Origin: Candidatus Hodarchaeota archaeon
GTDB lineage: Archaea > Asgardarchaeota > Lokiarchaeia > Sigyniarchaeales > SOKP01
Reading direction: 5' to 3'
Length of the DNA stretch: 20,867 bases
Assembly (NCBI GenBank): GCA_048887225.1
Contig: JBHLJY010000032.1
Span: 1-20,867 of the forward strand
The position numbers and the translations under genes are program-made. Shown here piece by piece: positions 200-19,591 of this stretch (position 1 is its first letter; the number at the start of each line of letters is the position of its first letter). Below the pieces are notes generated by a model. The model was not told the DNA's origin. It worked only from the letters and a program-made list of their open reading frames with translations, and searched no databases.

Positions 200-553
200 T
201 TGGATGTTGAGAAAAATATTTTAGAATGGTTACAGCAACTTAAAGAACACAGAAAAACAGAACCAGAGAAAATACCTTCTGAACCGAAAAAAAAATCAGA
301 TGACGAATTAAAAGAAATGATTCAAGTTAGAGCATATTTTCTTTCGCATAACCAGCTAAGTTACAATGAATTATGCTGGATGCTTGCTGAAAAACAACTT
401 ATAATTCAAAAAGGCGATGAAAACGTTACTGAAAATGAAATTCGGAAAAAAGCTGAAGAGGTATTTCGATCTTCTTGTACTTATGATGAACTATGTTGGT
501 TGATTTCAGAGCTCAATATTTTGATTGAACAGAAGATATTAGATATAGGGTGA
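200..553 (+). CDS. Hypothetical protein with two tandem DUF2934-like helical repeats
   Basis: TTG start 7 nt after GGTGA. Internal duplication IQVRAYFLS...SYNELCWMLAEKQL / IRKKAEEVF...TYDELCWLISELNI resembles the IRxRAY...W..AE..L pattern of DUF2934. Confidence 0.6.
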   Translation: MDVEKNILEWLQQLKEHRKTEPEKIPSEPKKKSDDELKEMIQVRAYFLSHNQLSYNELCWMLAEKQLIIQKGDENVTENEIRKKAEEVFRSSCTYDELCWLISELNILIEQKILDIG

Positions 554-603
554 TATCGATTAAATTTCAGTATTAAAAAAACTTGAATTGTTATTTATTC
601 CTC

Positions 604-1341
604 TTATTTCAATAAATCCTCTAATTCTCTATCTGAGAGAAACCCTTTAAGTTCCATTGTTTCTTTAATTTTTTCAATAATTTCTGGCGCTCTAGATATC
701 CCTGATTTCTCAGCCTCAAAGGAATCGATCATTTCCTTCATATCGTCTATTTTTTTATCTTTTATAAGAAGTTCAGCTTTGAGACTTTCAATTTCTTTAT
801 CTTTTTCTATTAAATTGGCTCTGATGTCTTCAATTTCCTTATTTTTTTGTTCTAAATTCGTTTTGACGCCTTCAATTTCTTCGTTTTTATGTTCTAAAAT
901 CGTTTTGACGCCTTCAATTTCTTCGTTTTTTTGTTCTAAATTCGTTTTGACGCTCTCAATTTCTTTGTTTTTTTGTTCTAAATCCGCGATATTACTCTTA
1001 AGACTTTCAATTTCTTTTTCTTTATTTGATATAATTTGTACAACATCATCTATTTTTTTAGCTGAATTTTTTTCCAATTCTGCTAAACTACTTTCTAAAT
1101 CTGATTTGTCTGATTTAAGGCTATCAATTACTTCATTCAATTCAAGCTTCTCTTTTTTAACATTCTCTAGGTCAAGTTTACATGAGGTTAGAAACATCTC
1201 TGAACCTTCAAGGCGTTCTTTGGCTTTATGAAGTTCTTGTTCTAAATTAGTAATTTTGGACCTAAGGTCTAATAATACTTTCCCCTCAACTTTTTGTTTT
1301 ATTTCAGGTTTACTCTCTACTTTAGACCAATCAATACCTAT
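604..1341 (-). CDS. Coiled-coil protein with 14-aa tandem repeats (about 245 aa; probable ATA start upstream of the ORF-track start at 1197)
   Basis: The frame stays open from 1197 back to an in-frame TGA inside a GGTGA SD. The extension reads (M)GIDWSKVESKPEIKQKVEGKVLLDLRSKITNLEQELHKAKERLE, and ATA lies 6 nt after GGTGA. The body is heptad-rich E/K/L with a short C-terminal KGFLSDRELE cap. Confidence 0.7.
   Translation of the reverse strand: MGIDWSKVESKPEIKQKVEGKVLLDLRSKITNLEQELHKAKERLEGSEMFLTSCKLDLENVKKEKLELNEVIDSLKSDKSDLESSLAELEKNSAKKIDDVVQIISNKEKEIESLKSNIADLEQKNKEIESVKTNLEQKNEEIEGVKTILEHKNEEIEGVKTNLEQKNKEIEDIRANLIEKDKEIESLKAELLIKDKKIDDMKEMIDSFEAEKSGISRAPEIIEKIKETMELKGFLSDRELEDLLK
830..981. 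repeat. 42-bp coding tandem repeat (about 3.5 near-identical units, degenerate units on both sides)
   Basis: Unit ttgttctaaattcgttttgacgccttcaatttcttcgttttt recurs at about 847, 889 and 931. It encodes LEQKNKEIESVKTN / LEQKNEEIEGVKTI / LEHKNEEIEGVKTN / LEQKNKEIEDIRAN. Confidence 0.9.
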
Positions 1342-1487
1342 AATTATTCACCTTCTAATTGCCAATTATTAAATTTTTTATATTTCAATTATTATTATTA
1401 TATATTTTAAATAAATTGAATAAATTTAAATAATATTCAACTAAAATTTAAAATAATTAAATCAAAAAAGAACAGAGGATTGGGAAG

Positions 1488-2057
1488 ATGGGAACTTTAA
1501 GTGAACATTGTTATGCTTTTCCAGTTTTAGGAGGGATAATAACAATTATAGCTCTCTTAACACCAGCGGCTCATTACATCTCTGATGATACTATGTATTA
1601 TGGTATTTATGTTTGGATGTGGGGTTTATTAATGAGAAGGGCGCTCGGACATATGAGCATGAAGGTTTTTAATAGGAGATGGGATGATTTCGTTGAATAT
1701 TGGGGTCTTGAGCTTTTTGGAATTGTTCCATCAATGATTTGTACATTATTAATCGCATTAGGATCAATAGTATTACTTAGAACTGCTCAGAAAGTTAAAA
1801 AAGGCAATATGGATGAGGATAAAGCAGCAAAATTATGGACAATAGTCGCACTCATAAACATTGGTGCAACTATTTTTTGGATAATTTGGATTGAATTTTA
1901 TTATGCAGGGGTATATCAAATTATTTTAGGGCAAATCGTAATGAGTGCTCCAGAAGAAGGGCATACTGGCTTCTGGGCCTTTTATAATGTAGGATTTGGA
2001 GTGATTGGTGTCTTTATCGGGGCTGCAGTTGCGTTAATAGGTGTGTATGTCAAATAG
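1488..2057 (+). CDS. Hypothetical integral membrane protein, about 4 TM helices
   Basis: 189-aa ORF with GAGG upstream. Four hydrophobic stretches (FPVLGGIITIIALL; GIVPSMICTLLIALGSIVLL; LWTIVALINIGATIFWIIWI; GFGVIGVFIGAAVALIGVYV). Confidence 0.75.
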   Translation: MGTLSEHCYAFPVLGGIITIIALLTPAAHYISDDTMYYGIYVWMWGLLMRRALGHMSMKVFNRRWDDFVEYWGLELFGIVPSMICTLLIALGSIVLLRTAQKVKKGNMDEDKAAKLWTIVALINIGATIFWIIWIEFYYAGVYQIILGQIVMSAPEEGHTGFWAFYNVGFGVIGVFIGAAVALIGVYVK

Positions 2058-2418: not shown

Positions 2419-2553
2419 TTATATTTTTTCGAACATGTCCTTGCCAACTCCACACACAGGACATGTCCAATCATCGGGTAATTCTTCAAAGCTAGTTCCT
2501 TCGGCTTCCTCGTCGTAGATATATCCACACGCTTGACACTCCCATTTTGCCAA
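2419..2553 (-). CDS. Rubredoxin (short-chain, 44 aa; not in ORF track)
   Basis: Manual translation [44 protein letters not shown], with CxxCGYIYD and LPDDWxCPVCG motifs. TTG start with AAGGAG upstream. Confidence 0.95.
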
Positions 2554-2717
2554 ATTTAGCAACTCCTTCTATATTAGTCTGTTTTATTTATTTTTATAGA
2601 GTTAAATTGAAAATCTTTTAAAAATATTAATTTAATATTTTATAAAATTTATTCTAAATAAAATATTATTAATTATTGACATCGAGTTTTTAAATTTTTA
2701 TTATAGTGTATTACATA

Positions 2718-5120
2718 ATGAAATCTGCCTCTAAATTGAATAGGACTCTCAGATTAAAAAACAGTCTATTGTCAAGCCCTTATGAGATATGCTTAGAACG
2801 AATCAAATATTTTACCGAAATATATAAAGAGAATAAGGAAGACCCTGAGATAATAAAAAAAGCTAAGGCAATTGCTCATGTATTAAAAAATATGGTAATT
2901 TTTATTAGGGACAATGAATTACTCGTTGGCAACGAAACAAGTAAAAATTTAGCAGAAAAAATCAATTTGGATTTATATTCTTATGAAGGGAGCCTTGGAG
3001 AAAGAAGTAGCATTAGAAAATTAGTAGAAAGAAAAGTCCAGCCTTTCCAAATTGAAGATTCTGAAATTGACGATTTATTAAAAATTATCCCATTTTGGAA
3101 AAATAAAGCTCTATATAGTGATATAATATATCAACGACTATTAAGTGAAAAAGTTCTTTCAGGAACTGGTTTAAATGCATCAATGGCACCTAATATAGCC
3201 ATTCTTTCTGGTACCAACGAAGGTCATTTATCAGCAGGGTATGAAAAACTCCTAAAATTAGGTTATAATGGAATTATTAAAGAAGCAGAATCGTATCAAA
3301 AAATTTTAAACAAGAGTGACCCAGAATATCAAGATAAAAATAATTTTTATGAAGCTGTAAAGATTTACTATAATGCAGCGACTGAGTTCGCAATGCGATA
3401 TTCAATTCTTGCGAGTGAAATGTCGCTAAAAGAAAAAAATCAACAACGAAAGGACGAGCTTGATTTAATAGCCGAAACAATGAAAAATATCTCAATTAAT
3501 CCTCCCCATTCTTTTTACGAAGCGATTCAGTATATATGGTTTACTCAAAATATTGCAAATATCATATATTACAGAAGCGTTTTAGCCTTGGGGAGATTAG
3601 ATCAATTATTATGGCCGTATTATCAAAAAGATATTATAGAAGATAAAATATTTACTCGAGATTTTGCTTTAAATTTGATTGAAGAATTAAATTTAAAATT
3701 AACTTGGAATTGTACATTATTACCTACAGATTATACTTCGATTGCAAACGCTTTAGGCCTAAATACACAAACAATCACAATATCAGGTGTAAATAAGGAA
3801 GGAAAGGATGCAACAAATGAGATTTCCTATCTTTTTTTGGAAGCCTATAAGAATATTAAATCACTTACATCTGACTTGTCTATTCGAATTCACGAAAATA
3901 CCCCAGAAAGATTTTATCTTGAAGCGATGAAGGTTTTCAAATCAACTTCTGGTATTGCTTTTTATAACGATGAGGTTATAATTCCAGCTCTCGTTAAATC
4001 TGGGTATTCTCTGGAAGATGCTCGTAATTATGTCATTATTGGATGTGTGGAACCAACGGGCCAAGGAAACTCTTTTGCTGCAACTGGTAGGATGTTTACG
4101 AATTTACCTGGTGTATTAGAGTTAACTTTAAATAATGGATATAGTCATATGTCAGAACAGATTGATGGTTTAGAAACGGGAGATCCCAGAACTTTCAAAA
4201 CTTTTGAGGATTTTTATGAAGCTTTTACGTGGCAACTCCGCTTTAATATCGAAAAAACTGTGAAAATAGCAAAAATAGGGGATGAGGAAACGATAAAATA
4301 TTATCAACAGCCATTTATTTCTGCGAGTCTCGAGGGATGTTTGGAAAGTGGGAAAGATTATACTGCAGGTGGAGCTAAATATAATTTCTCTTCTATAACT
4401 GCTTATGGTTTTGGAACTTTAGTTGACTCTATGTACAATATAAAAAAAGTTGTTTATGACGAGAAAATAATGACTTTATCAGAATTAATTGAGATATTAA
4501 ATTTAAATTTTAGAAGAAAAGAAAATTTTCGCCAAAACTTAATAAATAAATATGAAAAATGGGGAAATGACAAGAAAGAAGTGGATAACCTAGCAGTAGA
4601 ATTATGGGATACCTTTTGTAGTGAAATTGTTAAGCATAAACCAACTTGGGGAGGTCGATATAATCCAGGAGCATATTCTATGGGAATCCACGTCATGGTG
4701 GGTTTTATTACAAGAGCGACTGCTGATGGTAGAAAAGCAATGTATCCACTTTCAAATAGTTTATCTCCAGTAAATAATGTTGAAAAAAATGGAATCACCG
4801 CAACTCTTAATTCTATTGCTAAATTAAATTATGAATTAGCTACTAATGGTGTGGCTGTAAATGTAAGATTCCATCCCCTTAACTTTGAAAGCGATGAAAA
4901 TGTAAAAAAATTTTATTATCTCTTAAAAGGTTATTTTGAAAAAGGTGGAATGCAAATTCAACCTACAGTAGTTTCGACTGAAACACTAAGAGATGCCCAA
5001 AAGCATCCCGAAAATTATACCGATTTAATTGTAAAAGTTGGAGGGTATAATGCAACCTTTGTTGATCTAGGAGTCCCTATTCAGAATGACATTATAGATC
5101 GATTAGAAAACAATTTGTAA
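2718..5120 (+). CDS. Glycyl-radical enzyme (PFL-like superfamily, single-Cys GCVEP eliminase/dehydratase type), substrate unknown
   Basis: About 800 aa with ELLVGN, ALGRLDQLLWPYY, IIGCVEP thiyl loop (4041-4055), ATADGRKA and C-terminal LIVKVGGYNATF glycyl loop. ATG 2718 is preferred over GTG 2706 because it lies about 21 nt after a TTTAAA box (leaderless). Confidence 0.9.
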   Translation: MKSASKLNRTLRLKNSLLSSPYEICLERIKYFTEIYKENKEDPEIIKKAKAIAHVLKNMVIFIRDNELLVGNETSKNLAEKINLDLYSYEGSLGERSSIRKLVERKVQPFQIEDSEIDDLLKIIPFWKNKALYSDIIYQRLLSEKVLSGTGLNASMAPNIAILSGTNEGHLSAGYEKLLKLGYNGIIKEAESYQKILNKSDPEYQDKNNFYEAVKIYYNAATEFAMRYSILASEMSLKEKNQQRKDELDLIAETMKNISINPPHSFYEAIQYIWFTQNIANIIYYRSVLALGRLDQLLWPYYQKDIIEDKIFTRDFALNLIEELNLKLTWNCTLLPTDYTSIANALGLNTQTITISGVNKEGKDATNEISYLFLEAYKNIKSLTSDLSIRIHENTPERFYLEAMKVFKSTSGIAFYNDEVIIPALVKSGYSLEDARNYVIIGCVEPTGQGNSFAATGRMFTNLPGVLELTLNNGYSHMSEQIDGLETGDPRTFKTFEDFYEAFTWQLRFNIEKTVKIAKIGDEETIKYYQQPFISASLEGCLESGKDYTAGGAKYNFSSITAYGFGTLVDSMYNIKKVVYDEKIMTLSELIEILNLNFRRKENFRQNLINKYEKWGNDKKEVDNLAVELWDTFCSEIVKHKPTWGGRYNPGAYSMGIHVMVGFITRATADGRKAMYPLSNSLSPVNNVEKNGITATLNSIAKLNYELATNGVAVNVRFHPLNFESDENVKKFYYLLKGYFEKGGMQIQPTVVSTETLRDAQKHPENYTDLIVKVGGYNATFVDLGVPIQNDIIDRLENNL

Positions 5121-5789: not shown

Positions 5790-5933
5790 TTAAGAATTAG
5801 ATTTTTTTACAAACATCTTTTTTGAAGAACGGCATTTAGGACATCTATACTCATCATCTAGTTTCTCAAAATGTACTTGCTTTTCATCATCAATATAGAG
5901 ATAATTACATTTTTTACATCTATAAGTAGGCAT
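5790..5933 (-). CDS. Rubredoxin-like protein (47 aa, basic, divergent; not in ORF track)
   Basis: Manual translation MPTYRCKKCNYLYIDDEKQVHFEKLDDEYRCPKCRSSKKMFVKKSNS*, with two CxxC knuckles at rubredoxin spacing. AAGGT upstream; lies downstream of the NAD(P)H oxidoreductase on the same strand. Confidence 0.85.
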   Translation of the reverse strand: MPTYRCKKCNYLYIDDEKQVHFEKLDDEYRCPKCRSSKKMFVKKSNS

Positions 5934-6013
5934 TAATTAGTTTACCTTTTTTTGATATACCTAATTATTTAATCTTATCCAATTATTTTAATTTTAAACT
6001 TATTTTTTAAAAA

Positions 6014-7363
6014 TTAAATTATTCTTTTTTTAAATTTATTCTTAGAGCCTTTACAGTTAGGACATTTCCAGTCATTAGGCAAATATTTAAATAAAAGCTC
6101 CATTTTAGCTTCATCATAAATATTTCCACATCCACCACAAATCCACTCAAATAAATTAATTGCTTCTCTGAGTTCATTATCATCAATCTCTTTTTCAATG
6201 TTTTTGTTCACATAAGGAATAGCTTTCCTTTCTCCAAATAGAATAGCTCCCTTAAGCTTATTATCCTTTAAAACGATTTTTTTATAACATCCTCCTTTTT
6301 TATCAACATTTTTTAGGATTTCCCATCCTGCTCCAATAAGTTCTGAGTCAGAAGGATCATAAATGCCAACTGAGGTTAGATCAATACCTACAATTTTAAG
6401 AGTGTTTTTTGGAATAGTTCCATGATATTCAATATTTTTTTTACCAATTATAGCAGAGGCTACAATTTTAGACTGTTCTAAGCATGCTGGAATGATTCCC
6501 CAGGTTTGATTTTTATATTCAATACAATCACCGACTGCATAGATATCATCGGCACTGGTTTCAAGATACCGATTAACAATAATTCCTTTATTTGTTTCTA
6601 ACTTAGCCTCCCTTGCTAGATCAATTGTAGGCCTTATTCCTGCTTGTATCATTACAATATCAGCTTCAAGTTTCGGGCCATCTTTAATTTTTATCCCTGT
6701 AGCTTTGTTATTTCCTAAGACCTCTTCTGTAGCGGCACCTAAAATTACTTTAATTCCCATATTTTCGATTTCTTCTTTTAAAAATTCTCCGCAATCTAAA
6801 TCTAATTGACGTGGCAATAATCGGGTAAAAAACTCGACAACCGTTGTATCAAGTTCTAAATTTTTTATCTGTCTTGCTAGCTCTAATCCTAATAATCCTC
6901 CTCCAATAATTATCGCTTTTTTTGCATTTTTCTCATCGATATAATTTCTGATTTCGAATGCATCATTAATAGTACGTAAAGTAAATACACCATTTTTCAG
7001 CAATTCTACGGCATTTTTAATTGGTGGTATATTTGGTTTACTTCCAGTTGCCAAAAGTAGTTTATCATAAAAAATCGGGTCTGTTTCGTTTTTAATAAAA
7101 ATATGTTTATGTTTTGGATGAATTTTAACGATTTTATTATTCAAAAAGGTCTTTATGTAATTTCTTTCATACCAGTCTTTATTAAACACGATTAAATCAT
7201 CAATAGATACTAAGCCACTAATAATTTGTGGAAGCTTAATTCTTGTATAATAGAGATATTTTTCTTGTGAGTAAATCTCGATCTCTACGTCTTTATCAAG
7301 GTTGCGTATATTCTGAGCCGAGAAAGTTCCTGCAACACCATTACCCACAATTATAATTTTCAT
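6014..7363 (-). CDS. FAD-dependent NAD(P)H:rubredoxin oxidoreductase-like protein with fused C-terminal rubredoxin domain
   Basis: GNGVAG (FAD), LLLATGS, IIGGGLLGLE (NAD), TSADDIYAVGDC and LKGAILFGE. C-terminal WICGGCGNIYDE...LPNDWKCPNC. Confidence 0.9.
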   Translation of the reverse strand: MKIIIVGNGVAGTFSAQNIRNLDKDVEIEIYSQEKYLYYTRIKLPQIISGLVSIDDLIVFNKDWYERNYIKTFLNNKIVKIHPKHKHIFIKNETDPIFYDKLLLATGSKPNIPPIKNAVELLKNGVFTLRTINDAFEIRNYIDEKNAKKAIIIGGGLLGLELARQIKNLELDTTVVEFFTRLLPRQLDLDCGEFLKEEIENMGIKVILGAATEEVLGNNKATGIKIKDGPKLEADIVMIQAGIRPTIDLAREAKLETNKGIIVNRYLETSADDIYAVGDCIEYKNQTWGIIPACLEQSKIVASAIIGKKNIEYHGTIPKNTLKIVGIDLTSVGIYDPSDSELIGAGWEILKNVDKKGGCYKKIVLKDNKLKGAILFGERKAIPYVNKNIEKEIDDNELREAINLFEWICGGCGNIYDEAKMELLFKYLPNDWKCPNCKGSKNKFKKRII

Positions 7364-7430
7364 ACTTTTATTAGTTACTCTAAATTATTTTAAGATTTTT
7401 ATTTAATAAATAAAATTAAGATCAATATTT

Positions 7431-7461
7431 CTTGAAACATGTTCGAGAGAGCTTTTAAATA
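7431..7461 (+). promoter_or_regulatory. Palindromic AACATGTT(CGA) operator-like site followed by a TATA-like box, between the divergent oxidoreductase and cooS genes
   Basis: AACATGTTCGA at 7436-7446 and TTAAATA at 7455. The same 11-mer with the same offset to a TATA-like box occurs at 9466. Confidence 0.5.
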
Positions 7462-7537
7462 AAATATTAATATATTTTCTAATAGTTCATAAGAACTAAT
7501 TTTTAAAATTTAGCAATTTTAATAATAAAAAAAGAAA

Positions 7538-9457
7538 ATGGTTTATAAAATAATGGAAGGAGAGAGAATTTCTTATCATAAATCGGTACAAAAGGTTTAT
7601 GAAAGAATTAAAAAAGATGATATGAATACTATCTGGGACCGATTTGAAGCTCAAGGATTTGGAGGAGTCCCTGATAAAAGATGTCCATTTTGCTTGAAAG
7701 GAGCTCGCTGTGATCTATGCTCTAATGGACCTTGCCGCTCAGATGCCTCAATAGACAAAAGAGGAGTATGTGGAATTACTGCTGATGGAATGGCAATGCG
7801 AATGATGTTATTAAGAAATGTTATGGGTGCCTCAACCTATCATTATCATACTGAAACTACCTTAAAAACTCTAAAAGCAACTGCCGAGGGCAAAACCCCT
7901 TTTAAAATTAGTGAGCCTGAGAAATTGAAAGATTTTGCTCAGAAGCTGGGGGTGGATACATCGGGTTCAGCTAATGATATTGCAATTCGCTTAGTCGAAT
8001 TTGCTAAAAATGATTTTAATAGATCTTATGACCACCCAAGTAAAATTGTAGAAGCTTTGGCACCTAAAGAGAGACAAGAAGTTTGGAAAAAAATTGGGAT
8101 TTTTCCAGGAGGAATTTATGGTGAAATGATGCTTTCAACGAGTTCTTGTCTGACAAATGTCGATGGTTTTTATGCGAGCTTAGCTTTAAAAGCTATGAGA
8201 CTTGGTGTTTCGATGGCGTATCAGAGCCAAATAATTAACGAATTTTGCCAAGATATCTTGTTTAACATTCCGCGACCTCATAAAATGCGTGTAAATCTCG
8301 GTGTTTTAGACCCTGATTATGTTAATGCATTACCTAATGGTCATGAGCCCTTTTTAGGCTTTGCTATGGTTCAAGTGGCTCGAAAACCAGAATGGCAAGA
8401 AAAAGCAAAAGCTGTTGGTGCGAAAGGATTGCGAATAATTGCCAATATTGAAACTGGACAAGAGATGATACAACGATGGGAAATGGATGATGTGTTTTAT
8501 GGATTTACTGGTAATTGGATAATGCAAGAAGCTGTATTAGGAAGTGGTTGTATTGATATTTTTGTCTGTGATATGAATTGCTGTATGCCCATTGATCCTA
8601 AATATGCTGAAAAATATAAATTTAAATTGATTCCTGTAAGTGAGGTTGTAGCTTTTGAAGGGGTTACTGAAAGATTAGATTATATTCCAGAACAGGCAGA
8701 AGCTCAAGCAGAAAAACTTTTACAAATGGCGATCGATAATTTTAAAGAACGCAGAGCGTCTATTGAACCAGTTCCTAATTTGGAAATGGGTGAAGCAATA
8801 GTTGGATTCTCTACAGAAAGCATTGTTGATGCCCTTGGCGGAAAACTTGATCCTTTATTAGATGCAATTAAAAATGGAACAATCAGAGGTGTTGTTGGGC
8901 TAGTTTCTTGTACAACTTTAAGGGATTACGGTCAAGATGTACATACTGTGAATGTCGCTAAAGAACTAATTAAGAGAGATATTCTAGTATTGTCTATGGG
9001 CTGTGGAAATGGAGGATTACAAGTTGCGGGGCTTTGCTTACCAGAAGCTAAAGATTTAGCAGGTCCAGGACTTAAAGCTTTATGTGAAAAATTGGGTATT
9101 CCACCTATATTGAGTTATGGTACTTGTACGGATACAGGGAGAGTAGCAGATTTGATTGGAGCAGTATCCAATGCACTAGGGGGTGTCCCTGTTCCTGACC
9201 TACCCGTAGCTGCTGCGGCTCCAGAATACATGGAACAAAAAGCTACGATCGATGCCGTATTTGCCTTGGCTTATGGACTTTATACTTATGTCAATCCAGT
9301 TCCAACTGTTACGGGTGGTCCAAATTTAGTAAAACTCTTAACTGAAAACTGCAAGGATATTACAGGGGGTATTTTACATTTGGAGACTGATGCAACTCAG
9401 GCCGCGGAGGGAATTTTAACTCACATTGAAGCAAATAGGAAAAAGTTAGGAATCTGA
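7538..9457 (+). CDS. cooS: Anaerobic CO dehydrogenase (CooS)/prismane-family protein, atypical CooS-V-like variant
   Basis: B-cluster C58/C61/C66/C78 (CDLCSNGPC...GVCG). C-cluster positions NGH269, DMNC348, VSC458, MGC489, GTC530, plus K568. However ANIE305TGQE replaces GICCTGNE, Y101 replaces the catalytic His, and the D-cluster is C49xxC52. Confidence 0.85.
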   Translation: MVYKIMEGERISYHKSVQKVYERIKKDDMNTIWDRFEAQGFGGVPDKRCPFCLKGARCDLCSNGPCRSDASIDKRGVCGITADGMAMRMMLLRNVMGASTYHYHTETTLKTLKATAEGKTPFKISEPEKLKDFAQKLGVDTSGSANDIAIRLVEFAKNDFNRSYDHPSKIVEALAPKERQEVWKKIGIFPGGIYGEMMLSTSSCLTNVDGFYASLALKAMRLGVSMAYQSQIINEFCQDILFNIPRPHKMRVNLGVLDPDYVNALPNGHEPFLGFAMVQVARKPEWQEKAKAVGAKGLRIIANIETGQEMIQRWEMDDVFYGFTGNWIMQEAVLGSGCIDIFVCDMNCCMPIDPKYAEKYKFKLIPVSEVVAFEGVTERLDYIPEQAEAQAEKLLQMAIDNFKERRASIEPVPNLEMGEAIVGFSTESIVDALGGKLDPLLDAIKNGTIRGVVGLVSCTTLRDYGQDVHTVNVAKELIKRDILVLSMGCGNGGLQVAGLCLPEAKDLAGPGLKALCEKLGIPPILSYGTCTDTGRVADLIGAVSNALGGVPVPDLPVAAAAPEYMEQKATIDAVFALAYGLYTYVNPVPTVTGGPNLVKLLTENCKDITGGILHLETDATQAAEGILTHIEANRKKLGI

Positions 9458-9460
9458 GTA

Positions 9461-9491
9461 TTTTGAACATGTTCGAAATTAAAGTTATATT
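9461..9491 (+). promoter_or_regulatory. Palindromic TTTGAACATGTTCGAA site plus TATA-like box upstream of the 4Fe-4S protein gene
   Basis: GAACATGTTC is a perfect 10-bp palindrome at 9465-9474, followed by TTATAT at 9485. It matches the site at 7436. Confidence 0.5.
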
Positions 9492-9544
9492 CCGATTAAA
9501 GTTCTAAATAATTAAGAAAATAAATAAAAAAAAGGGGAATAATA

Positions 9545-10330
9545 ATGACTGAAACAAAACAATATAAAAAAATTAATAGGAAAATAATAGAAATTGATGA
9601 TGATCTCTGCACTGGATGTGGAAATTGCGTTACTACTTGCGCTGAGGGTGCGCTTGAAGTTGTTGATGGAAAAGCTAGAATTATAAAAGAAATTTTCTGT
9701 GATGGTTTAGGGGCTTGTATAGGAGAGTGTCCTGAGGGTGCCCTGAAAATTATCGAGAGAGAGGCGTTTGAATTTGATGAAGAAGCGGTAGAAACTCATC
9801 TAGAAGAAATTAAATTTCAAGAAGAAATTAGCCGCCATATAGCAACTGAGGAACCTGGTAATATGGCTTGTGGATGCCCTGGATCACGAACAATGACTTT
9901 TGTTGAATCTGATGATGCAGAGGAACAAGTTTTAGAAGGTAAGGTAAAATCACAATTAAGACAATGGCCCGTTCAAATGCATTTAATCTCGCCTTTAGCA
10001 TCTTATTACCAAGGAGCTGATGTTTTGCTAGCAGCGGATTGTACAGCATTTTCATACGGAGGATTCCATAGCGAACTTTTAAAGGGAAAAGCGATAGTAA
10101 TTGCTTGTCCTAAACTCGATCAAGGTCAAGAGAGTTATATTCAAAAAATTAAATCTCTTATTGATGATGCAAAAATCAACACATTAACAGTTGCTACAAT
10201 GGAAGTTCCTTGCTGTCGGGGTTTACTAATGCTCGCGCAAGAAGCAGCAAAAAGGGCAACGAGAAAAGTTCCAATAAAATATTTAGTTATTGGGATACAA
10301 GGAGATCTACTCCATGAAGAATGGATATAA
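9545..10330 (+). CDS. 4Fe-4S dicluster ferredoxin-domain protein with Cys-rich C-terminal domain (type often found beside hcp genes)
   Basis: CTGCGNCVTTC and CDGLGACIGECP, then CGCPGS, SQLRQWPVQ, AADC, IACPKLD and MEVPCC motifs. Confidence 0.85.
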   Translation: MTETKQYKKINRKIIEIDDDLCTGCGNCVTTCAEGALEVVDGKARIIKEIFCDGLGACIGECPEGALKIIEREAFEFDEEAVETHLEEIKFQEEISRHIATEEPGNMACGCPGSRTMTFVESDDAEEQVLEGKVKSQLRQWPVQMHLISPLASYYQGADVLLAADCTAFSYGGFHSELLKGKAIVIACPKLDQGQESYIQKIKSLIDDAKINTLTVATMEVPCCRGLLMLAQEAAKRATRKVPIKYLVIGIQGDLLHEEWI

Positions 10331-10380
10331 TTAAAGAATAAAAAACTATTTTTTTAAATTGATTTAGAATAAAGGATGCA

Positions 10381-11037
10381 TTATGCTTCAAATATTATTT
10401 TCTTTCTAATTATTTTTCTTAACATAACAGATAATGCCGATTTTGACTTTCCTAATTCATTTGCCAGATTTTCTAGTGAAATTTTTCTGGGGACTTCAAA
10501 AAATCCTGAATCTATAGCTTTATCCAAAACATTAGATTCCTCTAAACTTAATCGAGCCTTTTCATCCTCAAGATTATATGGGGCTTTCCCAATACGGAGT
10601 AAAGTGAAATCAATATTTTTCTGTTCAAAAAGGGTTAAAAGTTTATCAATTCGATCTCGTGTGGAAATCAATCTCCAATATGCGTTGCCATCTCTAACTT
10701 TTACTGGAAAATCAACTAAGATTCCATGCTTGATTACACCATAAAGTAAGTAAGGATCTTTTGTTTTTACATTAATTTTAATTCTATTTTCTTCCTGTTC
10801 AATGATGCTGAATTCGAATACAGATGCATGATTCTTAATTTCATTACTAACTGAATTGATGTCGTAATAATTTATCTCAACAATTGAATTTCCGATGGAT
10901 TTGTCTAAATCATATGGAAGAAAATATAAAATTTCCATTTTCACATCGGGAAATTTTTTGAAAATTTCAGAAATCCACAGCTGGTCAGGAAATTTAATTT
11001 TTACCCTAGCTAAGCTCGGTTTATTCGAATCCATCAT
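10381..11037 (-). CDS. Transcriptional regulator with C-terminal HTH_10 (bacterio-opsin activator type) domain
   Basis: C-terminal LDKAIDSGFFEVPRKISLENLANELGKSKSALSVMLRK is the typical GYF/YxxPRxxxLxELAxxLGxSxS pattern. Leaderless ATG after AAAAG-TTTTAAAT. Confidence 0.88.
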   Translation of the reverse strand: MMDSNKPSLARVKIKFPDQLWISEIFKKFPDVKMEILYFLPYDLDKSIGNSIVEINYYDINSVSNEIKNHASVFEFSIIEQEENRIKINVKTKDPYLLYGVIKHGILVDFPVKVRDGNAYWRLISTRDRIDKLLTLFEQKNIDFTLLRIGKAPYNLEDEKARLSLEESNVLDKAIDSGFFEVPRKISLENLANELGKSKSALSVMLRKIIRKKIIFEA

Positions 11038-11110
11038 TAATTAATAGATAGTAATAAATTTAAAACTTTTTTAGGATTAATTAATAAAAAATAAAATAAC
11101 TTGTTATATT

Positions 11111-11710
11111 ATGGTGGAAAATAAAAATTTATTATTAGGTTTGTGTGGAAGTCCACGAAAACAAGGAACTGAATTCGCTATCCACTATGCCTTAAATTAT
11201 GCAGCTAAAAAATTTAATTTTGAAACAGAATTTTGGACGGTTAGGGGAAAGACAATTAAATTTTGTGTGCATTGCGATTATTGCATTCGAGAGAAAAAGG
11301 GATGTGCTCATGTTGATAATTTGGGAGAACTTTATCCTAAAATTGAGGAAGCAAAATTTTTGTTATTAGGGACTCCTGTTTTTCAAGGAAATTTATCTGG
11401 GCAACTAAAAGCAATAATGGATCGTTGTCGTGCATTACTCGCTATAAATCCGAATGTATTTAAAAATAAAGTTGGAATAGCTCTAGCAGTTGGTGGTGAT
11501 AGAAGTGGTGGTCAAGAAATCGCAATTAGATCGATTTTAGATTTTTATCAACAAAATCAGATAATATGTGTTTCAGGTGGAGCATTTGGAGCTAATCTGG
11601 GTGCGAGTCTTTGGAGTAAAGATTTAGGAAAGAAAGGAATTGAACAAGATGAGGAGGGTTTAAGGAGTATTAGAAAAGTTATAAAAAGGTTAGCCGAATT
11701 TAAAAAATAA
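11111..11710 (+). CDS. Iron-sulfur flavoprotein (Isf; flavodoxin-like, NADPH-dependent FMN reductase family)
   Basis: GSPRKQGT phosphate loop, compact CVHCDYC-x6-C cluster motif, GTPVF, LKAIMDR and GGDRSGGQE. Confidence 0.9.
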   Translation: MVENKNLLLGLCGSPRKQGTEFAIHYALNYAAKKFNFETEFWTVRGKTIKFCVHCDYCIREKKGCAHVDNLGELYPKIEEAKFLLLGTPVFQGNLSGQLKAIMDRCRALLAINPNVFKNKVGIALAVGGDRSGGQEIAIRSILDFYQQNQIICVSGGAFGANLGASLWSKDLGKKGIEQDEEGLRSIRKVIKRLAEFKK

Positions 11711-11745: not shown

Positions 11746-12051
11746 TCACATTTTAAATAAATTTTTAAAGAGTTTTTTAGCTTCTTTTTTCTTAAGTCCT
11801 GATATTCCCCATAATTCGTTAAAATGATATTTTCCTTTAAACATTACGACTGGTGTATTAACAACACAGCCTTCTTCATCACAAAACATTTTTACAAAAT
11901 TAGGATCATGTAATAGTTGATGTACAAACTTTTCATCCTCAATGTCTTGTTCAACATACGATAAATTATTTTCTTTCATCCAATCTTTTAATTCAATGCA
12001 TCTTGAACAATCTTTTTTTGTAATGATTATAGGTAACTGAATTTCAGACAT
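11746..12051 (-). CDS. Glutaredoxin/NrdH-like redoxin
   Basis: TKKDCSRC active site and NTPVV cis-Pro motif, plus an extra C-x4-C (FCDEEGC). Confidence 0.75.
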   Translation of the reverse strand: MSEIQLPIIITKKDCSRCIELKDWMKENNLSYVEQDIEDEKFVHQLLHDPNFVKMFCDEEGCVVNTPVVMFKGKYHFNELWGISGLKKKEAKKLFKNLFKM

Positions 12052-12260
12052 ATTAAATATAAGAATAATAATTATAAAAAAGTTTGATCTTCTAAATTAT
12101 AACTTAGATAAGCGTATCTTTAGGTTATTGCTTAAAATTAATAGCTTTATACAATCTAAAATATTAAAAACTTCATCAATTTTCTTTCAGATTTCTTTTA
12201 ATTCTAATACAAAATCTATAAATTATAATCAACAAATTCTAATTCCTAAAGTTTCTTTTT

Positions 12261-12716
12261 ATGATAAATATGTCCAATTCTAAAAACGAATCTTTCAATA
12301 CGGCTATAAAAAATTTATTCCATGGTGATTCATGGGAGCAAAGAGCTGCAGCTGCCATTGAACTTGGAAAATTAAAAGATTCTCGCGCTACTAATTTATT
12401 AGCAAAAGCCATTAACTCCGAAAAGGATTCTGTTGTAATTAATCGCATTATTGAAGCAATGGGTAAAATTAGAGATCCAAAAGCTACAATGGTTATTATT
12501 CATTTTTTAAAACAAGAATTAGAATTTCCAGAAGAAGAACAAAATAAAAATAGATTGTTTGTAATTATTGAGAGCTTAATGAAAATAGGAGATAAAAGAG
12601 CACTGGAGCATTTAGGCATTTTACTTAATTCTTGCGACAGTGATATCAGATCTTTAACTGAAGACGCTTTTGAATGTATTGACCCAAACTGGAAACAAAA
12701 TATTAAAAAAACCTAA
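12261..12716 (+). CDS. HEAT/PBS-lyase repeat protein
   Basis: Repeats RAAAAIELGKLKDSRA, RIIEAMGKIRDPKA and IIESLMKIGDKRA. The start could be the ATG at 12270. Confidence 0.85.
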   Translation: MINMSNSKNESFNTAIKNLFHGDSWEQRAAAAIELGKLKDSRATNLLAKAINSEKDSVVINRIIEAMGKIRDPKATMVIIHFLKQELEFPEEEQNKNRLFVIIESLMKIGDKRALEHLGILLNSCDSDIRSLTEDAFECIDPNWKQNIKKT

Positions 12717-12774
12717 ATAGTTAAATTTACAAAATAAATTATATTTGATTTTAAAATAAATAAATCGAAAAGTA

Positions 12775-13095
12775 ATGACTACTGAAGAATTAATTGATAA
12801 TTTAGCAATACCGATTGATGGAGAGAAAGATGAAAGAGAAATAACCATTTTTACCTTAAGCACATGTATGTGGTGTAAAAAATGTAAAAGATGGCTGAAT
12901 GAACGGAATGTTAAATATAGATATATTGATGTGGATAAAATACAATACTCCCAAAAGTCGGAAATCCTAAAATATCTAAAAAAGAATTATCAGCAACGAA
13001 TATCATACCCATATATGGTTTGCGATAAAAAAGATGTAGTTGTAGGGTATAATCCTGGTAAATATGAAGAATTAATGAAAGGGGGGAGAGAATAA
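12775..13095 (+). CDS. Glutaredoxin family protein (methanoredoxin-like partner of the ferredoxin:disulfide reductase)
   Basis: TLSTCMWCKKC, YRYIDVD, ISYP and VVGYN motifs. Its stop is 1 nt before the FTR-family gene. Confidence 0.88.
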   Translation: MTTEELIDNLAIPIDGEKDEREITIFTLSTCMWCKKCKRWLNERNVKYRYIDVDKIQYSQKSEILKYLKKNYQQRISYPYMVCDKKDVVVGYNPGKYEELMKGGRE

Positions 13096-13096
13096 A

Positions 13097-13465
13097 ATGG
13101 AAATGGAAACTAAAGAAGGAATGATGGAATATTGTAAGAAAGTTTGTGAGACAAATAAGTGGATTTTAAATAAAGACGAAGAAACATTAAATGATTTAAT
13201 AGAAGGGCTTGTAGATAATAAAAAGATGTATGGATATCAATCATGTCCTTGCCGGCTTCCATCAGGTAAAAGAGATCTAGATCGCGATTTAATTTGCCCA
13301 TGTGATTATGCCCCAGCAGATATTAAAGAATATGGTGCTTGTTATTGTAATCTATATTTACGTCCAGATTTCCATGAACGCGGAGTAGATTTCATAACTG
13401 TTCCCGAAAGAAGACCTGTAGACAAAGAAGAAGCAGTAATGCGCTTTATAAATGAACAAAGTTAA
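13097..13465 (+). CDS. Ferredoxin:thioredoxin/glutaredoxin reductase catalytic subunit (FTR-beta/FDR family)
   Basis: CPC...CPC...CYC motifs (YGYQSCPCR, DLICPCDY, YGACYCNLY) and VPERRP. GGGGGAG SD upstream. Confidence 0.92.
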   Translation: MEMETKEGMMEYCKKVCETNKWILNKDEETLNDLIEGLVDNKKMYGYQSCPCRLPSGKRDLDRDLICPCDYAPADIKEYGACYCNLYLRPDFHERGVDFITVPERRPVDKEEAVMRFINEQS

Positions 13466-13538
13466 AATCCCCTTAACTGAAATCCTTTTTTATTTTATAA
13501 TTATAATCTTTAAATAATGCAGATTCTCAATTTATTAC

Positions 13539-13697
13539 ATGACATATAAGAAAGATATAACTGATGAGGAATTAGAGAAAGAAATAGAAAAAGCCTTTAA
13601 AGAGGATGAGGCAAAACGAGACCATTGTGGTACTGCTCTTCCCAGTTCTAAAGAAATCGGAGTTCAAAGGGAGAATATAAAGGTTAAAAAAGAATAA
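13539..13697 (+). CDS. Small charged hypothetical protein with a single Cys (52 aa; not in ORF track)
   Basis: MTYKKDITDEELEKEIEKAFKEDEAKRDHCGTALPSSKEIGVQRENIKVKKE*. TTTAAATA box at 13509-13516 lies 22 nt before the ATG. Purine-rich, coding-like composition with a T-rich tract after the stop. Confidence 0.65.
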   Translation: MTYKKDITDEELEKEIEKAFKEDEAKRDHCGTALPSSKEIGVQRENIKVKKE

Positions 13698-13801
13698 TTT
13701 AAATTATTTCTATTTTTGTCTCTTTTTTTAAATCGTTTCCTATAGATATAAAGAAAGATATTAATTATTAAACTTAAGTTCCATTATTTTGGGTGATTTC
13801 A

Positions 13802-14776
13802 GTGAAAGAGAGAATAAAAGGAAGAAAGAACTTTCCGACTGAAGAAGTGGATCCAAATAATTTCCTTTCAGATGAAGATATTAGAAAGATGGTTAAAAAT
13901 GTTGAAAATATTAAATTTGACCAAAACGATTTCTTTAAACTTTATAATTGTGTTCTATGCGGAGAATGTGAGACTGATATGGATCGCATTCTGTTAAAAC
14001 AGAAGTTTATACTAGATGGGAACATATTTGAAGGATTTGGCGAAATGCTTGAGAATTATGAAAAATACCGATCTCCCTATCCAACAAATAAGATGCGTAT
14101 AAAAAAACCAGATGGTGTACCTAAATCGTCAGATACACTCTTCTTTATGGGATGCCTTTCAACCATTAGAATTCCCAGATACACTGAACATGCTCTTCAA
14201 TATTTTCTTAAACAGAAAATTGATTTCACAGTTTTAGAGACTGAGATCTGCTGTGGATGGCATTTATTTGCAAGTGGATTAAAACGAGAATTTGAAATTT
14301 GCTTAAAGGAAAACTTTGAGATTTTTAAAAGATTTAAAAAAATTATTTGTCTCTGCCCAGCATGCTATTACTTATTCAATACTTTTTATAAACTAAAAGA
14401 TTTAGAATTTAAATATATAGCTGATTATTTAAAACCTTCAGAAACTAAAAAAGAAGGAAGAATTGGCATTCAGCATCCATGTCATTTAATATTCCGAGAA
14501 AGAGGAGATTTAGAGAAATCAGTAGAAAAGATTTTAAAAAAGAGTGGTTATACAATAAGAGATGTTCCGCATTGGTGCTGTGGCGGTGGAATAGGATGGA
14601 TGGGAAGAACGGATGTGATTGATGCGATTGCTAGAAAAAGAATGGAAGATTTTAATAAAGAAAATATAGATTATATAACAACTTACTGTGTAAGTTGTTG
14701 GTGGATTTTAAGAAGATATAGCAAATTGTGTAAAATCAAGCCAAAACCAAGAGATATTTTTGAATTACTTTTATGA
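13802..14776 (+). CDS. CCG-domain Fe-S protein (HdrB/HdrD/GlpC-like), N-terminally reduced
   Basis: FMGC...ICCG...CPAC and QHPC...WCCGGG...YCVSC form two CCG domains, with a single CVLCGEC motif at the N-terminus. GTG 13802 is preferred because the track's GTG 13793 lies inside the GGTGA SD. Confidence 0.85.
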   Translation: MKERIKGRKNFPTEEVDPNNFLSDEDIRKMVKNVENIKFDQNDFFKLYNCVLCGECETDMDRILLKQKFILDGNIFEGFGEMLENYEKYRSPYPTNKMRIKKPDGVPKSSDTLFFMGCLSTIRIPRYTEHALQYFLKQKIDFTVLETEICCGWHLFASGLKREFEICLKENFEIFKRFKKIICLCPACYYLFNTFYKLKDLEFKYIADYLKPSETKKEGRIGIQHPCHLIFRERGDLEKSVEKILKKSGYTIRDVPHWCCGGGIGWMGRTDVIDAIARKRMEDFNKENIDYITTYCVSCWWILRRYSKLCKIKPKPRDIFELLL

Positions 14777-14787
14777 ATTCAATTTAT

Positions 14788-15648
14788 TTATATAATTTTA
14801 TTGATCAGTTGGGGGATATCCCACGGTAACTGAGCAATTGAAGCACCTGCATCTTGTAATGCCTTAATTTTTCCTTTTGCAGTTCCAAAATTTCCAGATA
14901 TTATTGCTCCAGCGTGTCCCATACGTTTACCTTCAGGGGCGCTTTTCCCTGCGATATATGCGATAATAGGTTTCGATACATTATTTTTAATGAATTCTGC
15001 TGTTTTTTCTTCCTCATCACTTCCAATTTCACCAATAAGGACAATTAATTTCGTATTTGGATCTTCCTCATAATACTTGACTGCTTCAACCATCGTTGTT
15101 CCTCTAACAGGATCTCCACCAATTCCAATATAAGCAGAAACTCCTATTCCTGCATCTCCTATAGCTTTTGTTATTTCGTAAGAAAGCGTTCCACTTTTTG
15201 ATATAACAGCGACATCACCATAATGGCATATATCACTCGGCATAACTCCTAATTTAATTCTTTCAGGTATTAGCATTCCAGGGCAATTTGGTCCTATTAA
15301 ATGTAAGTTTTTTTCTTTGGCTATTTCAACAAGTCGAACCATATCGAAAATTGGCAAATTTTCAGTTATAATGCAGGTTATTTTTATTCCTTCGTTTAAA
15401 CTTTCTGCTATAGCATTATAAGCAAAAAAGGCGGGGACAAATACAATACTTGTATCAGCATCTTGTTCATTAATTGCTTCTTTTACTTTGTTATACACTG
15501 GTATGCCATGAACTTCTTGACCCCCCTTTCCTGGTGTAACCCCCGCAACAATATTAGTGCCGTAATCAAGCATAAGACGGGTATGAAATGTTCCTTGATT
15601 TCCCGTAATGCCTTGAACCATAACTTTTGATTCCTTTTTAATATATAT
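14788..15648 (-). CDS. sucD: Succinyl-CoA synthetase alpha subunit (probable ATA start)
   Basis: VQGITG, GVTPGKGG, IGPNCPG, SKSGTL, GIGGDP, GEIG and phospho-His motif RMGHAGA. The frame extends upstream as IYIKKESKV, matching the usual SucD N-terminus. Confidence 0.93.
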   Translation of the reverse strand: MYIKKESKVMVQGITGNQGTFHTRLMLDYGTNIVAGVTPGKGGQEVHGIPVYNKVKEAINEQDADTSIVFVPAFFAYNAIAESLNEGIKITCIITENLPIFDMVRLVEIAKEKNLHLIGPNCPGMLIPERIKLGVMPSDICHYGDVAVISKSGTLSYEITKAIGDAGIGVSAYIGIGGDPVRGTTMVEAVKYYEEDPNTKLIVLIGEIGSDEEEKTAEFIKNNVSKPIIAYIAGKSAPEGKRMGHAGAIISGNFGTAKGKIKALQDAGASIAQLPWDIPQLINKII

Positions 15649-15670
15649 TTCTAATCACCTTTTAATATGA

Positions 15671-16792
15671 TTAGCTTAACACTTCCTTAACTTTTTCTAC
15701 TGCTTCAATTACATTTTTAAAAGCATTTATTCCGACATTTTTTAGGAGGGCAATTCCTTCTAATTCATTTGTTCCAGTTAATCTAATTACCATAGGGGGA
15801 GCATCAGTGAATTCCTTCAAAGCTTGAATTATCCCCTCAGCAACTATATCACATCGAGTAATCCCTCCATAAATATTAATGAATACACATTTTGGATCTA
15901 ATTTAAATAGGAGTTTTAAAGCTTCATAGACTCGTTCTTTATTTGCCCCCCCTCCTACATCTAAAAAGTTAGATGGTTTTAGCCCTAATTGAGATAACAC
16001 ATCTAGAATTGCCATAGTCAATCCTGCACCATTTGCTAAAATTCCAATATCTCCATCAAGCTCGACAAAAGAAAAACCAATTTTTTTAGCTCTTTTTTCT
16101 AAATCTGTAAGTTTTCTTTCTTGTAATTTTTTTATAAGTGGTTGACGAAATGCAGAATTTTCATCTAAAATTATTTTAGCATCTACTGCAAGTATTCCTG
16201 ACGGAGTTAGAACTAAAGGGTTGATCTCAACTAGTAAAGCTTCGTGACTTGTTGTGATTTTCCATAATTTAACAAAAATATCTTTAGCATCGTCTAAATT
16301 TTTTCCTAAAAATCTTAATTTTTTAGCTGCTTTCTTAGCCATTTCTTCAGTTAATCCTTCTTTTAACGTAAAACTTTCTTTAATTATTGCTTCAGGATGT
16401 TTTGCAGCAACTTCTTCAATATCGATACCTCCTCTTTTACTAGTAATAAAATAAAATTGTCGTCTTAATGCGTCCAAGGAGATCGAACAATAGTATTCAT
16501 GTTGGATTTTTACTAATTCTTCAATGAGAATAGCTTCAATCCTCAATCGTCCATCTTCTTTGCTAAAGAATTCATTACATAAAGATATACATTCATCTTT
16601 ATTTTGAGCAATTTTTATTAATCCAGATTTTTTCCGACTCCCAATCGCAATTTGCGACTTCACAATTGCTGGAAATGGGAAATTTTCAACTTTTCCTTTG
16701 ATCTCATCTTTCTTACTTATTAATATATTTTTAGCAAGTGGAACGTTGAATTTATCCAAAATTTCTTTACTTTCATATTCAAGTAAGTGAAT
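15671..16792 (-). CDS. sucC: Succinyl-CoA synthetase beta subunit (probable ATT start)
   Basis: EINPL, DAK, NGAGL, NFLDVGGGA, NIYGGITRCD and RLTGTN motifs. The upstream in-frame IHLLEYESKEIL matches the conserved MxLxEYxxKxL N-terminus. Confidence 0.93.
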   Translation of the reverse strand: MHLLEYESKEILDKFNVPLAKNILISKKDEIKGKVENFPFPAIVKSQIAIGSRKKSGLIKIAQNKDECISLCNEFFSKEDGRLRIEAILIEELVKIQHEYYCSISLDALRRQFYFITSKRGGIDIEEVAAKHPEAIIKESFTLKEGLTEEMAKKAAKKLRFLGKNLDDAKDIFVKLWKITTSHEALLVEINPLVLTPSGILAVDAKIILDENSAFRQPLIKKLQERKLTDLEKRAKKIGFSFVELDGDIGILANGAGLTMAILDVLSQLGLKPSNFLDVGGGANKERVYEALKLLFKLDPKCVFINIYGGITRCDIVAEGIIQALKEFTDAPPMVIRLTGTNELEGIALLKNVGINAFKNVIEAVEKVKEVLS

Positions 16793-16954
16793 TGCTGATC
16801 CCTCCCGAATCTTTATTGTAATGAATTAGAATAACTTTAATTGAAATAAATAATAATATATTCAAATTAATTTTAAATTTCCATTTAAATTAATAAACAT
16901 TTTAATAATTAATAGAATCATTTCGTTAAAATGTAACAGAATATTAAAAAAATT

Positions 16955-18145: not shown

Positions 18146-18183
18146 AATAAAATATAATTAAATTCTCGAGTGGTAAATTTTTC

Positions 18184-19575: not shown

Positions 19576-19591
19576 ATTTGGAGAAATAAAA

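Follow-up and report, generated by a model that had tools for sequence, protein, structure and literature searches.

A CooS-V-type gene with candidate electron-transfer partners and a conserved palindromic site in Loki-type Asgard archaea

Structural group D-1 of clade D of the carbon monoxide dehydrogenases (CODHs) has been defined with a Tyr at the position of His93 in CODH-II (Inoue 2019), and CooS-V of Carboxydothermus hydrogenoformans contains a hybrid cluster and is inactive with CO and CO2 (Jeoung 2022, PMC9311411). A Glu in place of Cys295, an extra Cys41 (Gly41 to Cys41), Glu556, and His and Cys ligands are tied to this cluster, and a C295E variant of CODH-II is Ni-deficient and inactive (PMC9311411). 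The bridging cluster of CooS-V is of the [2Fe-2S] type. The enzyme class itself is thus already published (Inoue 2019; Jeoung 2022); the only biochemical study of clade D found no good substrate (Jeoung 2022), and a context survey from 2026 found no clear gene neighborhood. Linkage of hcp and frdX has also been published (PMC1274295), and a frdX knock-down in C. difficile is sensitive to nitric oxide (NO; PMC12915319). Here we describe a cooS-like gene on contig JBHLJY010000032.1 (20,867 nt, the whole of it called “the window” below) from a Candidatus Hodarchaeota archaeon (assembly GCA_048887225.1; 3.27 Mb in 49 contigs, 98% complete, about 30% GC), together with the genes and putative operator sites around it.

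The interpretation toward which we lean is that the CooS-V-type enzyme is an optional terminal reductase with a role in redox stress, its gene forming part of a regulon that the palindrome GAACATGTTC marks and that also includes an NAD(P)H:rubredoxin oxidoreductase-rubredoxin fusion (NROR-Rd) and a FrdX-family Fe-S protein. The features on which this is built are the following.

5790..5933, minus strand: small rubredoxin-like protein, 47 aa, CxxC...CxxC (Pfam Rubredoxin 28.3 bits, cut-off 23)
6014..7363, minus strand: NROR-Rd, NAD(P)H:rubredoxin oxidoreductase with a C-terminal rubredoxin domain, 449 aa (Pyr_redox_2 191.6, Rubredoxin_C 56.1, Rubredoxin 25.5 bits)
7435..7444, no strand: putative operator copy 1, AAACATGTTC, differing from GAACATGTTC at one position, between the divergent NROR-Rd and cooS-like genes
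7538..9457, plus strand: cooS-like gene, CooS-V-type (clade D, group D-1) CODH-fold protein (7B7Q match, residue table, tree)
9465..9474, no strand: putative operator copy 2, a perfect GAACATGTTC palindrome, after the stop of the cooS-like gene and before the start of the frdX-like gene
9545..10330, plus strand: FrdX-family Fe-S protein (4Fe-4S dicluster, KSQLRQWPVQ), 261 aa, with a ferredoxin domain and a C-terminal Cys/His-rich domain
10381..11037, minus strand: HTH_10 transcription regulator, 218 aa (HTH_10 47.7 bits), convergent with the frdX-like gene
11111..11710, plus strand: Isf-like FMN reductase, 199 aa (FMN_red 92.7 bits)

The open reading frame (ORF) at 7538-9457 is 639 aa long; its Met6 (at 7553) is the first residue of homologs and of a 634-aa database copy, and is likely the start of the protein. 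The product matches the Pfam Prismane/CODH family at 473.6 bits. Its top relative of solved structure is CooS-V (7B7Q; 695 bits, E 6e-208, residues 10-639), against 410 bits at best for active CODHs (HMMER). The diagnostic motifs are GASTYHYH, starting at residue 97 and containing Tyr101, ANIETGQE at 302 with Glu305, and YMEQKA at 564 with Glu566 and Lys568. When the protein is aligned by HMMER to three solved CODHs (Thermococcus AM4, CODH-IV, and D. vulgaris), Glu305 stands opposite the second Cys of CCTGNE and Tyr101 opposite their catalytic His; with CooS-V, Glu305 aligns to Glu295. A 71-sequence alignment has canonical residues in columns C49, C58, C61, C66, C78, H269, C348, C458, C489, C530, and K568, and its motif columns read H/CC/x-E-K in full-canonical sequences versus Y/IE/E-Q-K here. 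There is also an extra Cys, forming C49-P-F-C52 (CPFC), at a column where most canonical-motif sequences have Gly. All D-1 signature residues are therefore present (Glu for the C-cluster Cys, Tyr for His, the CxxC, and equivalents of His259, Cys338, Cys449, Cys480, Cys521, and Glu556), and the set expected of canonical Ni,Fe-CODHs (clades E/F) is incomplete, with Glu for one Cys, Tyr for the His, and only the Lys of the His93/Lys563 pair kept. The original prediction, made from the letters alone, had named Glu305, Tyr101, the retained B-cluster cysteines, and H269/C348/C458/C489/C530/K568, and each is where it had been placed.

A quick IQ-TREE reconstruction of 51 rows, with 20 gappy or degenerate rows left out, agrees with the residue table. 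Sequences with Glu305 and Tyr101, the window's among them, are monophyletic (SH-aLRT 100) and sister to clade D variants with Asn/Cys and Tyr/Cys, apart from canonical-motif sequences; against 7B7Q, one representative of this group scores 705 bits. Affiliation with active clade E/F enzymes, the result that would have told against the original assignment, is not what the tree gives, and the three lines together confirm the protein, by its sequence, as a CooS-V-type enzyme of clade D, group D-1. The predicted ligands are C49/C52 for the bridging cluster, C58/C61/C66/C78 for the B-cluster, and H269, E305, C348, C458, C489, C530, and E566 for an Fe/S/O hybrid cluster that would replace the Ni,Fe C-cluster, with Tyr101 in place of the acid-base His. 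Given both replacements, CO oxidation would not be expected.

Automated annotation says otherwise, as had been foreseen. The protein scores 734.5 bits against the TIGR01702 equivalog (cut-off 478), and its close homologs are labeled CO dehydrogenase by NCBI and JGI. Matches to cooS in Loki-, Thor-, and Heimdall-type metagenome-assembled genomes (MAGs) have been taken as signs of CO metabolism or carbon fixation (e.g., PMC7495880); the gene described here should not be counted as either. The CooS-V-like matches in four sister genomes end at about residue 561-568, with an in-frame stop, at the Glu566/Lys568 motif; the window copy is uninterrupted there.

This subgroup is widely and unevenly spread. 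A genome scan with the cooS-like protein gave at least 597 matching stretches, at least 584 of them encoding a relative. The best 80 of these at least 597 matches are 76-86% identical to the query and span Asgard lineages, Bathyarchaeia, Thermoplasmata, Methanofastidiosa, Dehalococcoidia, WOR-3, Desulfobacterales, and Actinomycetota. Identity between archaea and bacteria at this level is far above phylogenetic expectation, and so points to a tightly constrained gene repeatedly transferred between domains. Within the Asgard archaea the distribution is patchy, 39 of 201 sampled genomes having a match with E of 1e-100 or lower, including 24 of the 40 from the window's own family. Three genomes of that family also have a second CooS, which has canonical motifs and 35% identity to the query and whose gene immediately precedes that of an NROR-like flavoprotein; these second loci have the published CooS-FNOR arrangement.

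The 261-aa protein encoded downstream can be assigned, from its sequence, to the hcp-linked FrdX family, its connection to the named frdX running through gene context and the published description. It is 40% identical (94% of length, E 5e-53) to the product of the 4Fe-4S gene in a Roseburia plasmid hcp-crp-4Fe4S cluster, and genes whose products are 42-50% identical to it are found in 108 of 121 sampled Desulfobacteria genomes, with hcp no more than 1.5 kb away in 10 of 30 inspected loci. Both fit the published hcp-frdX linkage, as the original prediction had expected of this 4Fe-4S family. No hcp was found within 5 kb of the Acetoanaerobium FrdX homolog, and neither FrdX nor the operator within 1.5 kb of two Asgard hcp loci. 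The protein and its homologs have invariant motifs in common. Those of the second domain (PF27217 by precomputed annotation) are S-x-L-x-x-W-P-x-Q, AADC, H, CPKxD, and VPCC, the invariant positions being S136, L138, W141-P142, Q144, C166, H175, C188-P-K-x-D192, and V221-P-C-C224; the domain has five conserved Cys and one His. Foldseek and VIA-align returned generic alpha/beta matches for this domain, beta-carbonic anhydrase at the top with Z 6.7, and led to no assignment.

FrdX is also the commonest neighbor of CooS-V-like genes (28 of 88 loci), and is within 7 kb in 24 of the 55 loci having at least 1.5 kb on both sides. In non-Asgard lineages the two are directly adjacent in 9 of 26 loci, in both gene orders; lineages in which FrdX neighbors a CooS-V-like gene include WOR-3, Dehalococcoidia, Methanofastidiosa, Thermococci, Methanophagales, and Freyarchaeota. 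The window's copy is the only full-length member of the family in its genome. A complex prediction for the CooS-like monomer with the FrdX-like protein scored 0.00, which speaks neither for nor against pairing, and a tree of FrdX by partner was confounded by taxonomy, the CooS linkage of Asgard rows from the protein search being assumed in it. FrdX as a strictly dedicated partner of CooS is ruled out by family genomes with FrdX and no cooS-like gene.

The remaining neighbors are likewise those originally claimed, by Pfam and NCBIfam: NROR-Rd, rubredoxin, the HTH_10 protein, and Isf, with no match to CooC, CooF, ACS, or hydrogenase among the ORFs scanned in the 20.9-kb window. The genome's two CdhA genes are on other contigs. 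NROR-Rd is divergent from the cooS-like gene and is 60-69% identical at position -1 in about 20 Asgard loci. It reached no NCBIfam equivalog cut-off; both the FAD/NAD domain and the rubredoxin-reductase C-terminal domain expected of an NADH:rubredoxin oxidoreductase are present. The small rubredoxin-like gene lies downstream on the same strand, and its product is 57-67% identical beside NROR-Rd in Asgard loci. The Isf-like protein, whose counterparts at this position in Asgard loci are 71-86% identical, has the Isf-type N-terminal four-Cys motif (C-x2-C-x2-C-x6-C at residues 52-65) and is a predicted Isf. The synteny survey proposed with the original prediction found the gene order repeated in about 18 independent Asgard contigs, with neighboring proteins 60-86% identical.

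In the window, putative operator copy 1 is 7 nt upstream of a TATA-like box, TTTTAAAT (7452-7459), and in 18 aligned NROR-Rd/cooS-like intergenic regions an invariant GAACATGTTC block is directly upstream of a TTTTAAAT-like box. Allowing one mismatch, and up to 260 nt upstream of the cooS-like gene, the site is found in 27 of 30 Loki-type loci versus 1 of 50 others; upstream of the frdX-like gene it is found in all 16 Asgard loci versus none of 13 non-Asgard ones. It accompanies the cooS-like gene even at four loci where that gene is sited away from the module. Only three intergenic sites occur in the whole genome (7435, 9465, and one on contig 49). The third, at 820-829 of that contig, is between a DUF166 gene (3-752, minus strand) and a gene for a 279-aa protein that matches RIO-type kinases weakly (885-1724, plus strand), and these two are possible further members of the regulon. 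Perfect sites number six genome-wide versus about three expected (a hand estimate from base composition), which is not clearly above expectation, so the argument for an operator rests on its conserved position.

The most likely reader of GAACATGTTC is the adjacent HTH_10 protein, a pairing that we infer. Its gene always adjoins the frdX-like gene in genomes of the window's family. No conserved Cys was found in its alignment, and a structural model (pLDDT 88.6) has two tandem alpha/beta domains ahead of the helix-turn-helix. A fold search with this putative sensor part gave Ta1207, of unknown function, as the top match (TM 0.46), from which no ligand could be deduced.

Hcp itself was not found in the window's genome, where matches to PF03063 are limited to the cooS-like gene and the two CdhA genes, and it exceeds the family cut-off in just two of 201 sampled Asgard genomes. 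The cooS-like protein is not a member of the Hcp family TIGR01703 (35.1 bits, cut-off 360.8); it may nonetheless work like Hcp.

From these elements the following picture may be proposed. In the Loki-type Asgard family, a regulon would be marked by GAACATGTTC directly upstream of TATA-like boxes and read by the adjacent HTH_10 regulator. Its core would be the divergent pair of NROR-Rd (with the small rubredoxin) and the FrdX-family protein, and the cooS-like gene, lying between them with its own copy of the operator, would encode an optional terminal reductase. Electrons would pass from NAD(P)H or ferredoxin to rubredoxin and/or FrdX, and from there to the bridging and B clusters of the CooS-like enzyme, which would in turn reduce a small oxidant (for example, hydroxylamine or another N-oxide, peroxide, or O2) in a redox-stress response also including Isf. 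All three rubredoxin-domain matches found by a PF00301 search of the whole genome (2419-2562, 5790-5933, and 6014-6150) are in the window.

The distribution of the module supports the “optional” part of this picture and at the same time supplies much of what weighs against the rest. In six sister genomes (G149, G035, G076, G118, G197, and G109), four of them 100% complete, the core is intact with no cooS-like gene, in the same order: rubredoxin, NROR-Rd, one operator, FrdX, HTH_10, Isf, and the thiol-redox genes described below, with NROR-Rd and the frdX-like gene forming a divergent pair. A seventh genome has this layout and a cooS-like gene 17 kb away on the same contig. The cooS-like gene is therefore an optional member, inserted between NROR-Rd and the frdX-like gene with its own operator copy or sited elsewhere. 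By the same token the core must be functional in its own right, with FrdX and NROR-Rd independent of the CooS-like enzyme, and G035, G076, G118, and G149 have no Hcp match either. Other Asgard families carry the cooS-like gene with neither the module neighbors nor the operator, and in one Desulfobacterales genome the FrdX and CooS-V-like genes are on different contigs. NROR-Rd may also, or instead, serve the superoxide reductase (SOR) and three rubrerythrin-like proteins encoded elsewhere in the genome. The chain from NAD(P)H through rubredoxin or ferredoxin to the CooS-like enzyme, as originally drawn, thus has synteny and the shared operator in its favor and the persistence of the core against it, and we continue to infer it on that basis.

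The related proposal, that the enzyme would fill the role of Hcp, is weakened: the window's genome would fit it, and other data do not. In Desulfobacteria, CooS-V-like genes occur in 4 of 13 Hcp-negative genomes and also in 9 of 108 Hcp-positive ones, and a 2026 preprint (10.1101/2025.09.14.676152) finds the highest CODH-HCP co-occurrence in clade D. CooS-V does not reduce NO and turns over NH2OH only slowly, and its cluster potentials are about 300 mV below those of Hcp, from which its authors argue for a different physiological function (Jeoung 2022, PMC9311411). Strict replacement of Hcp is ruled out by the coexistence in Desulfobacteria, where there is enrichment at most, related genomes not being independent; the biochemistry of CooS-V argues for a chemistry related to that of Hcp but distinct from it.

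These points can be turned into an explanation of their own, in which the core of NROR-Rd, rubredoxin, FrdX, HTH_10, and Isf is self-sufficient and the cooS-like gene a co-regulated passenger that takes no electrons from its neighbors. FrdX would then be catalytic or terminal through its Cys/His-rich C-terminal domain, for which no clear structural relative was found, NROR-Rd would serve SOR and the rubrerythrins, and the passenger might sense redox state, take part in persulfide or sulfur chemistry, or help in repairing Fe-S clusters. Besides the six genomes with the core alone, this would account for the tallies in the window's family, where FrdX is found in 47 of 61 genomes and HTH_10 in 50 versus 39 for the CooS-like gene. 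A sensing or regulatory role has been suggested for clade D (2026 preprint), and CooS-V forms a Cys persulfide on oxidation (PMC9311411). The explanation by a self-sufficient core fits less well with the FrdX genes that directly adjoin CooS-V-like genes in unrelated phyla with neither NROR-Rd nor the operator, with the FrdX-family genes that sit by hcp, and with an operator that is the same wherever the cooS-like gene is located; on balance we consider it unlikely, while giving it the most weight among the alternatives. The locus might also encode a CO dehydrogenase after all, perhaps weak or CO2-reducing, with electrons leaving via FrdX as a stand-in for CooF and the NROR-like flavoprotein to NAD(P)+. 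NROR-Rd is 31-34% identical to the flavoprotein beside canonical-motif CooS in related Asgard genomes, CooS/CooF/FNOR clusters are published (PMC6344411), genetic data cited in Inoue 2019 indicate a possible part in CO oxidation for the D-1 enzymes of M. acetivorans, and five C-cluster ligands and Lys568 are retained. We nevertheless find it very improbable: the exo-Fe Cys is Glu, the change that leaves CODH-II inactive and Ni-deficient, and CooS-V has no activity with CO or CO2 (PMC9311411); the catalytic His is Tyr, and cooC was not found in the window; and in the literature neither deletion of a clade D gene (C. autoethanogenum) nor the transcriptome of A. fulgidus gave a CO phenotype. Finally, the arrangement could be functionally meaningless and reflect only shared ancestry of closely related MAGs, as might be supposed from the confinement of the full module to one Asgard family, other families having the gene alone. 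This is already disfavored and seems to us scarcely credible, with the order kept while neighboring proteins diverged to 60-70% identity, the operator conserved at both genes, and FrdX adjacency repeated in distant phyla in both orientations.

Beyond the module, the window contains the following genes, as well as one for RmlC.

2419..2562, minus strand: canonical rubredoxin, 47 aa (Pfam Rubredoxin 56.7 bits), divergent from the glycyl-radical enzyme gene
2706-5120, plus strand: PFL-like glycyl-radical enzyme, divergent from the rubredoxin at 2419-2562
11746..12051, minus strand: conserved 101-aa protein with weak glutaredoxin-like similarity (NCBIfam matches at E 2e-4 at best)
12261..14776, plus strand: thiol-redox block of a HEAT-repeat protein, a glutaredoxin, a protein resembling the ferredoxin:thioredoxin reductase (FTR) catalytic subunit, and a CCG (HdrB-like) protein (Pfam, NCBIfam, synteny)
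14788-20866: sucD, sucC, Iso_dh (isocitrate/isopropylmalate dehydrogenase family), class II fumarase, and an aconitase-family gene, a run of tricarboxylic acid cycle type unrelated to the module

Whether the rubredoxin at 2419..2562 is part of the module is uncertain. No activase gene is visible adjoining the glycyl-radical enzyme gene beside it; the genome has two such PFL-like paralogs, and the other, on contig 49 (1733-4060, minus strand), is 0.9 kb from the third intergenic GAACATGTTC site. The gene for the 101-aa protein always adjoins the Isf-like gene, and the thiol-redox block is syntenic with the module, with no intergenic operator there. Two glutaredoxin-like proteins are counted in the conserved stretch at 11746-14776. 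The NCBIfam matches there are selenoprotein families (Uxx-star, FtrB double-selenoprotein), and the window copies read through with no in-frame TGA.

If the proposed regulon holds, the locus gives clade D candidate partners (FrdX and NROR-rubredoxin), a candidate regulator, and a defined operator, and sister genomes with the same module and no CooS-V-like enzyme offer a natural comparison. It would also point to oxidant handling by strictly anaerobic Asgard archaea, which bears on debates about their ecology. A broader and more tentative idea, which we regard as doubtful though worth stating, is that FrdX and an NAD(P)H:rubredoxin reductase form a general low-potential electron-supply “socket” for interchangeable hybrid-cluster enzymes, Hcp in many bacteria and the CooS-V type in Loki-type Asgard archaea and several sediment lineages. 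The latter would have been passed between archaea and bacteria as a near-invariant gene, and would serve these Asgard archaea as a principal defense against N-oxide or oxygen-derived oxidants, with a dedicated HTH_10 sensor acting at GAACATGTTC.

Compared with known systems, the window enzyme shares with CooS-V (7B7Q) its fold, length, predicted ligands (His259, Glu295, Cys338, Cys449, Cys480, Cys521, and Glu556 in CooS-V numbering), the Tyr that stands in for the catalytic His, and the additional Cys through which the bridging-cluster motif becomes CxxC. It differs in belonging to a separate, extremely conserved subgroup (76-86% across Asgard, Bathyarchaeia, Dehalococcoidia, WOR-3, and Desulfobacterales) and in having a defined gene context and operator, where published surveys saw no clear clade D neighborhood. 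With the nitrosative-stress operons known from Desulfobacteria and Clostridia (hcp-frdX and hcp-hcpR-frdX) the locus has in common a hybrid-cluster enzyme of the prismane/CODH superfamily, FrdX, and a dedicated regulator that acts, or here would act, at a palindrome; here, however, the enzyme is of CooS-V type instead of Hcp, the candidate regulator is an archaeal HTH_10 protein instead of a CRP/FNR-type HcpR, and an NROR-rubredoxin fusion and Isf are attached.

The NROR to rubredoxin to SOR, rubrerythrin, or flavodiiron chains are similar in combining NROR and rubredoxins in a strict anaerobe, beside Isf and glutaredoxins; the module has no SOR, rubrerythrin, or flavodiiron gene, and the divergent partner is instead FrdX, with or without a CooS-V-like gene. 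The CooS-CooF-FNOR clusters (clades C, D-3, G-1, and E-1) likewise encode a CooS-fold protein, a carrier of poly-ferredoxin type, and a NirB/NROR-like FAD flavoprotein together, but in the window the carrier is FrdX rather than CooF, the flavoprotein has a fused rubredoxin, and the CooS protein has neither the Ni-site Cys nor the catalytic His, so that electrons would probably flow toward the enzyme and not away from it. New here are the FrdX pairing, the putative operator, and an architecture with an optional insert, which together vary the hcp-frdX and CooS-CooF-FNOR themes.

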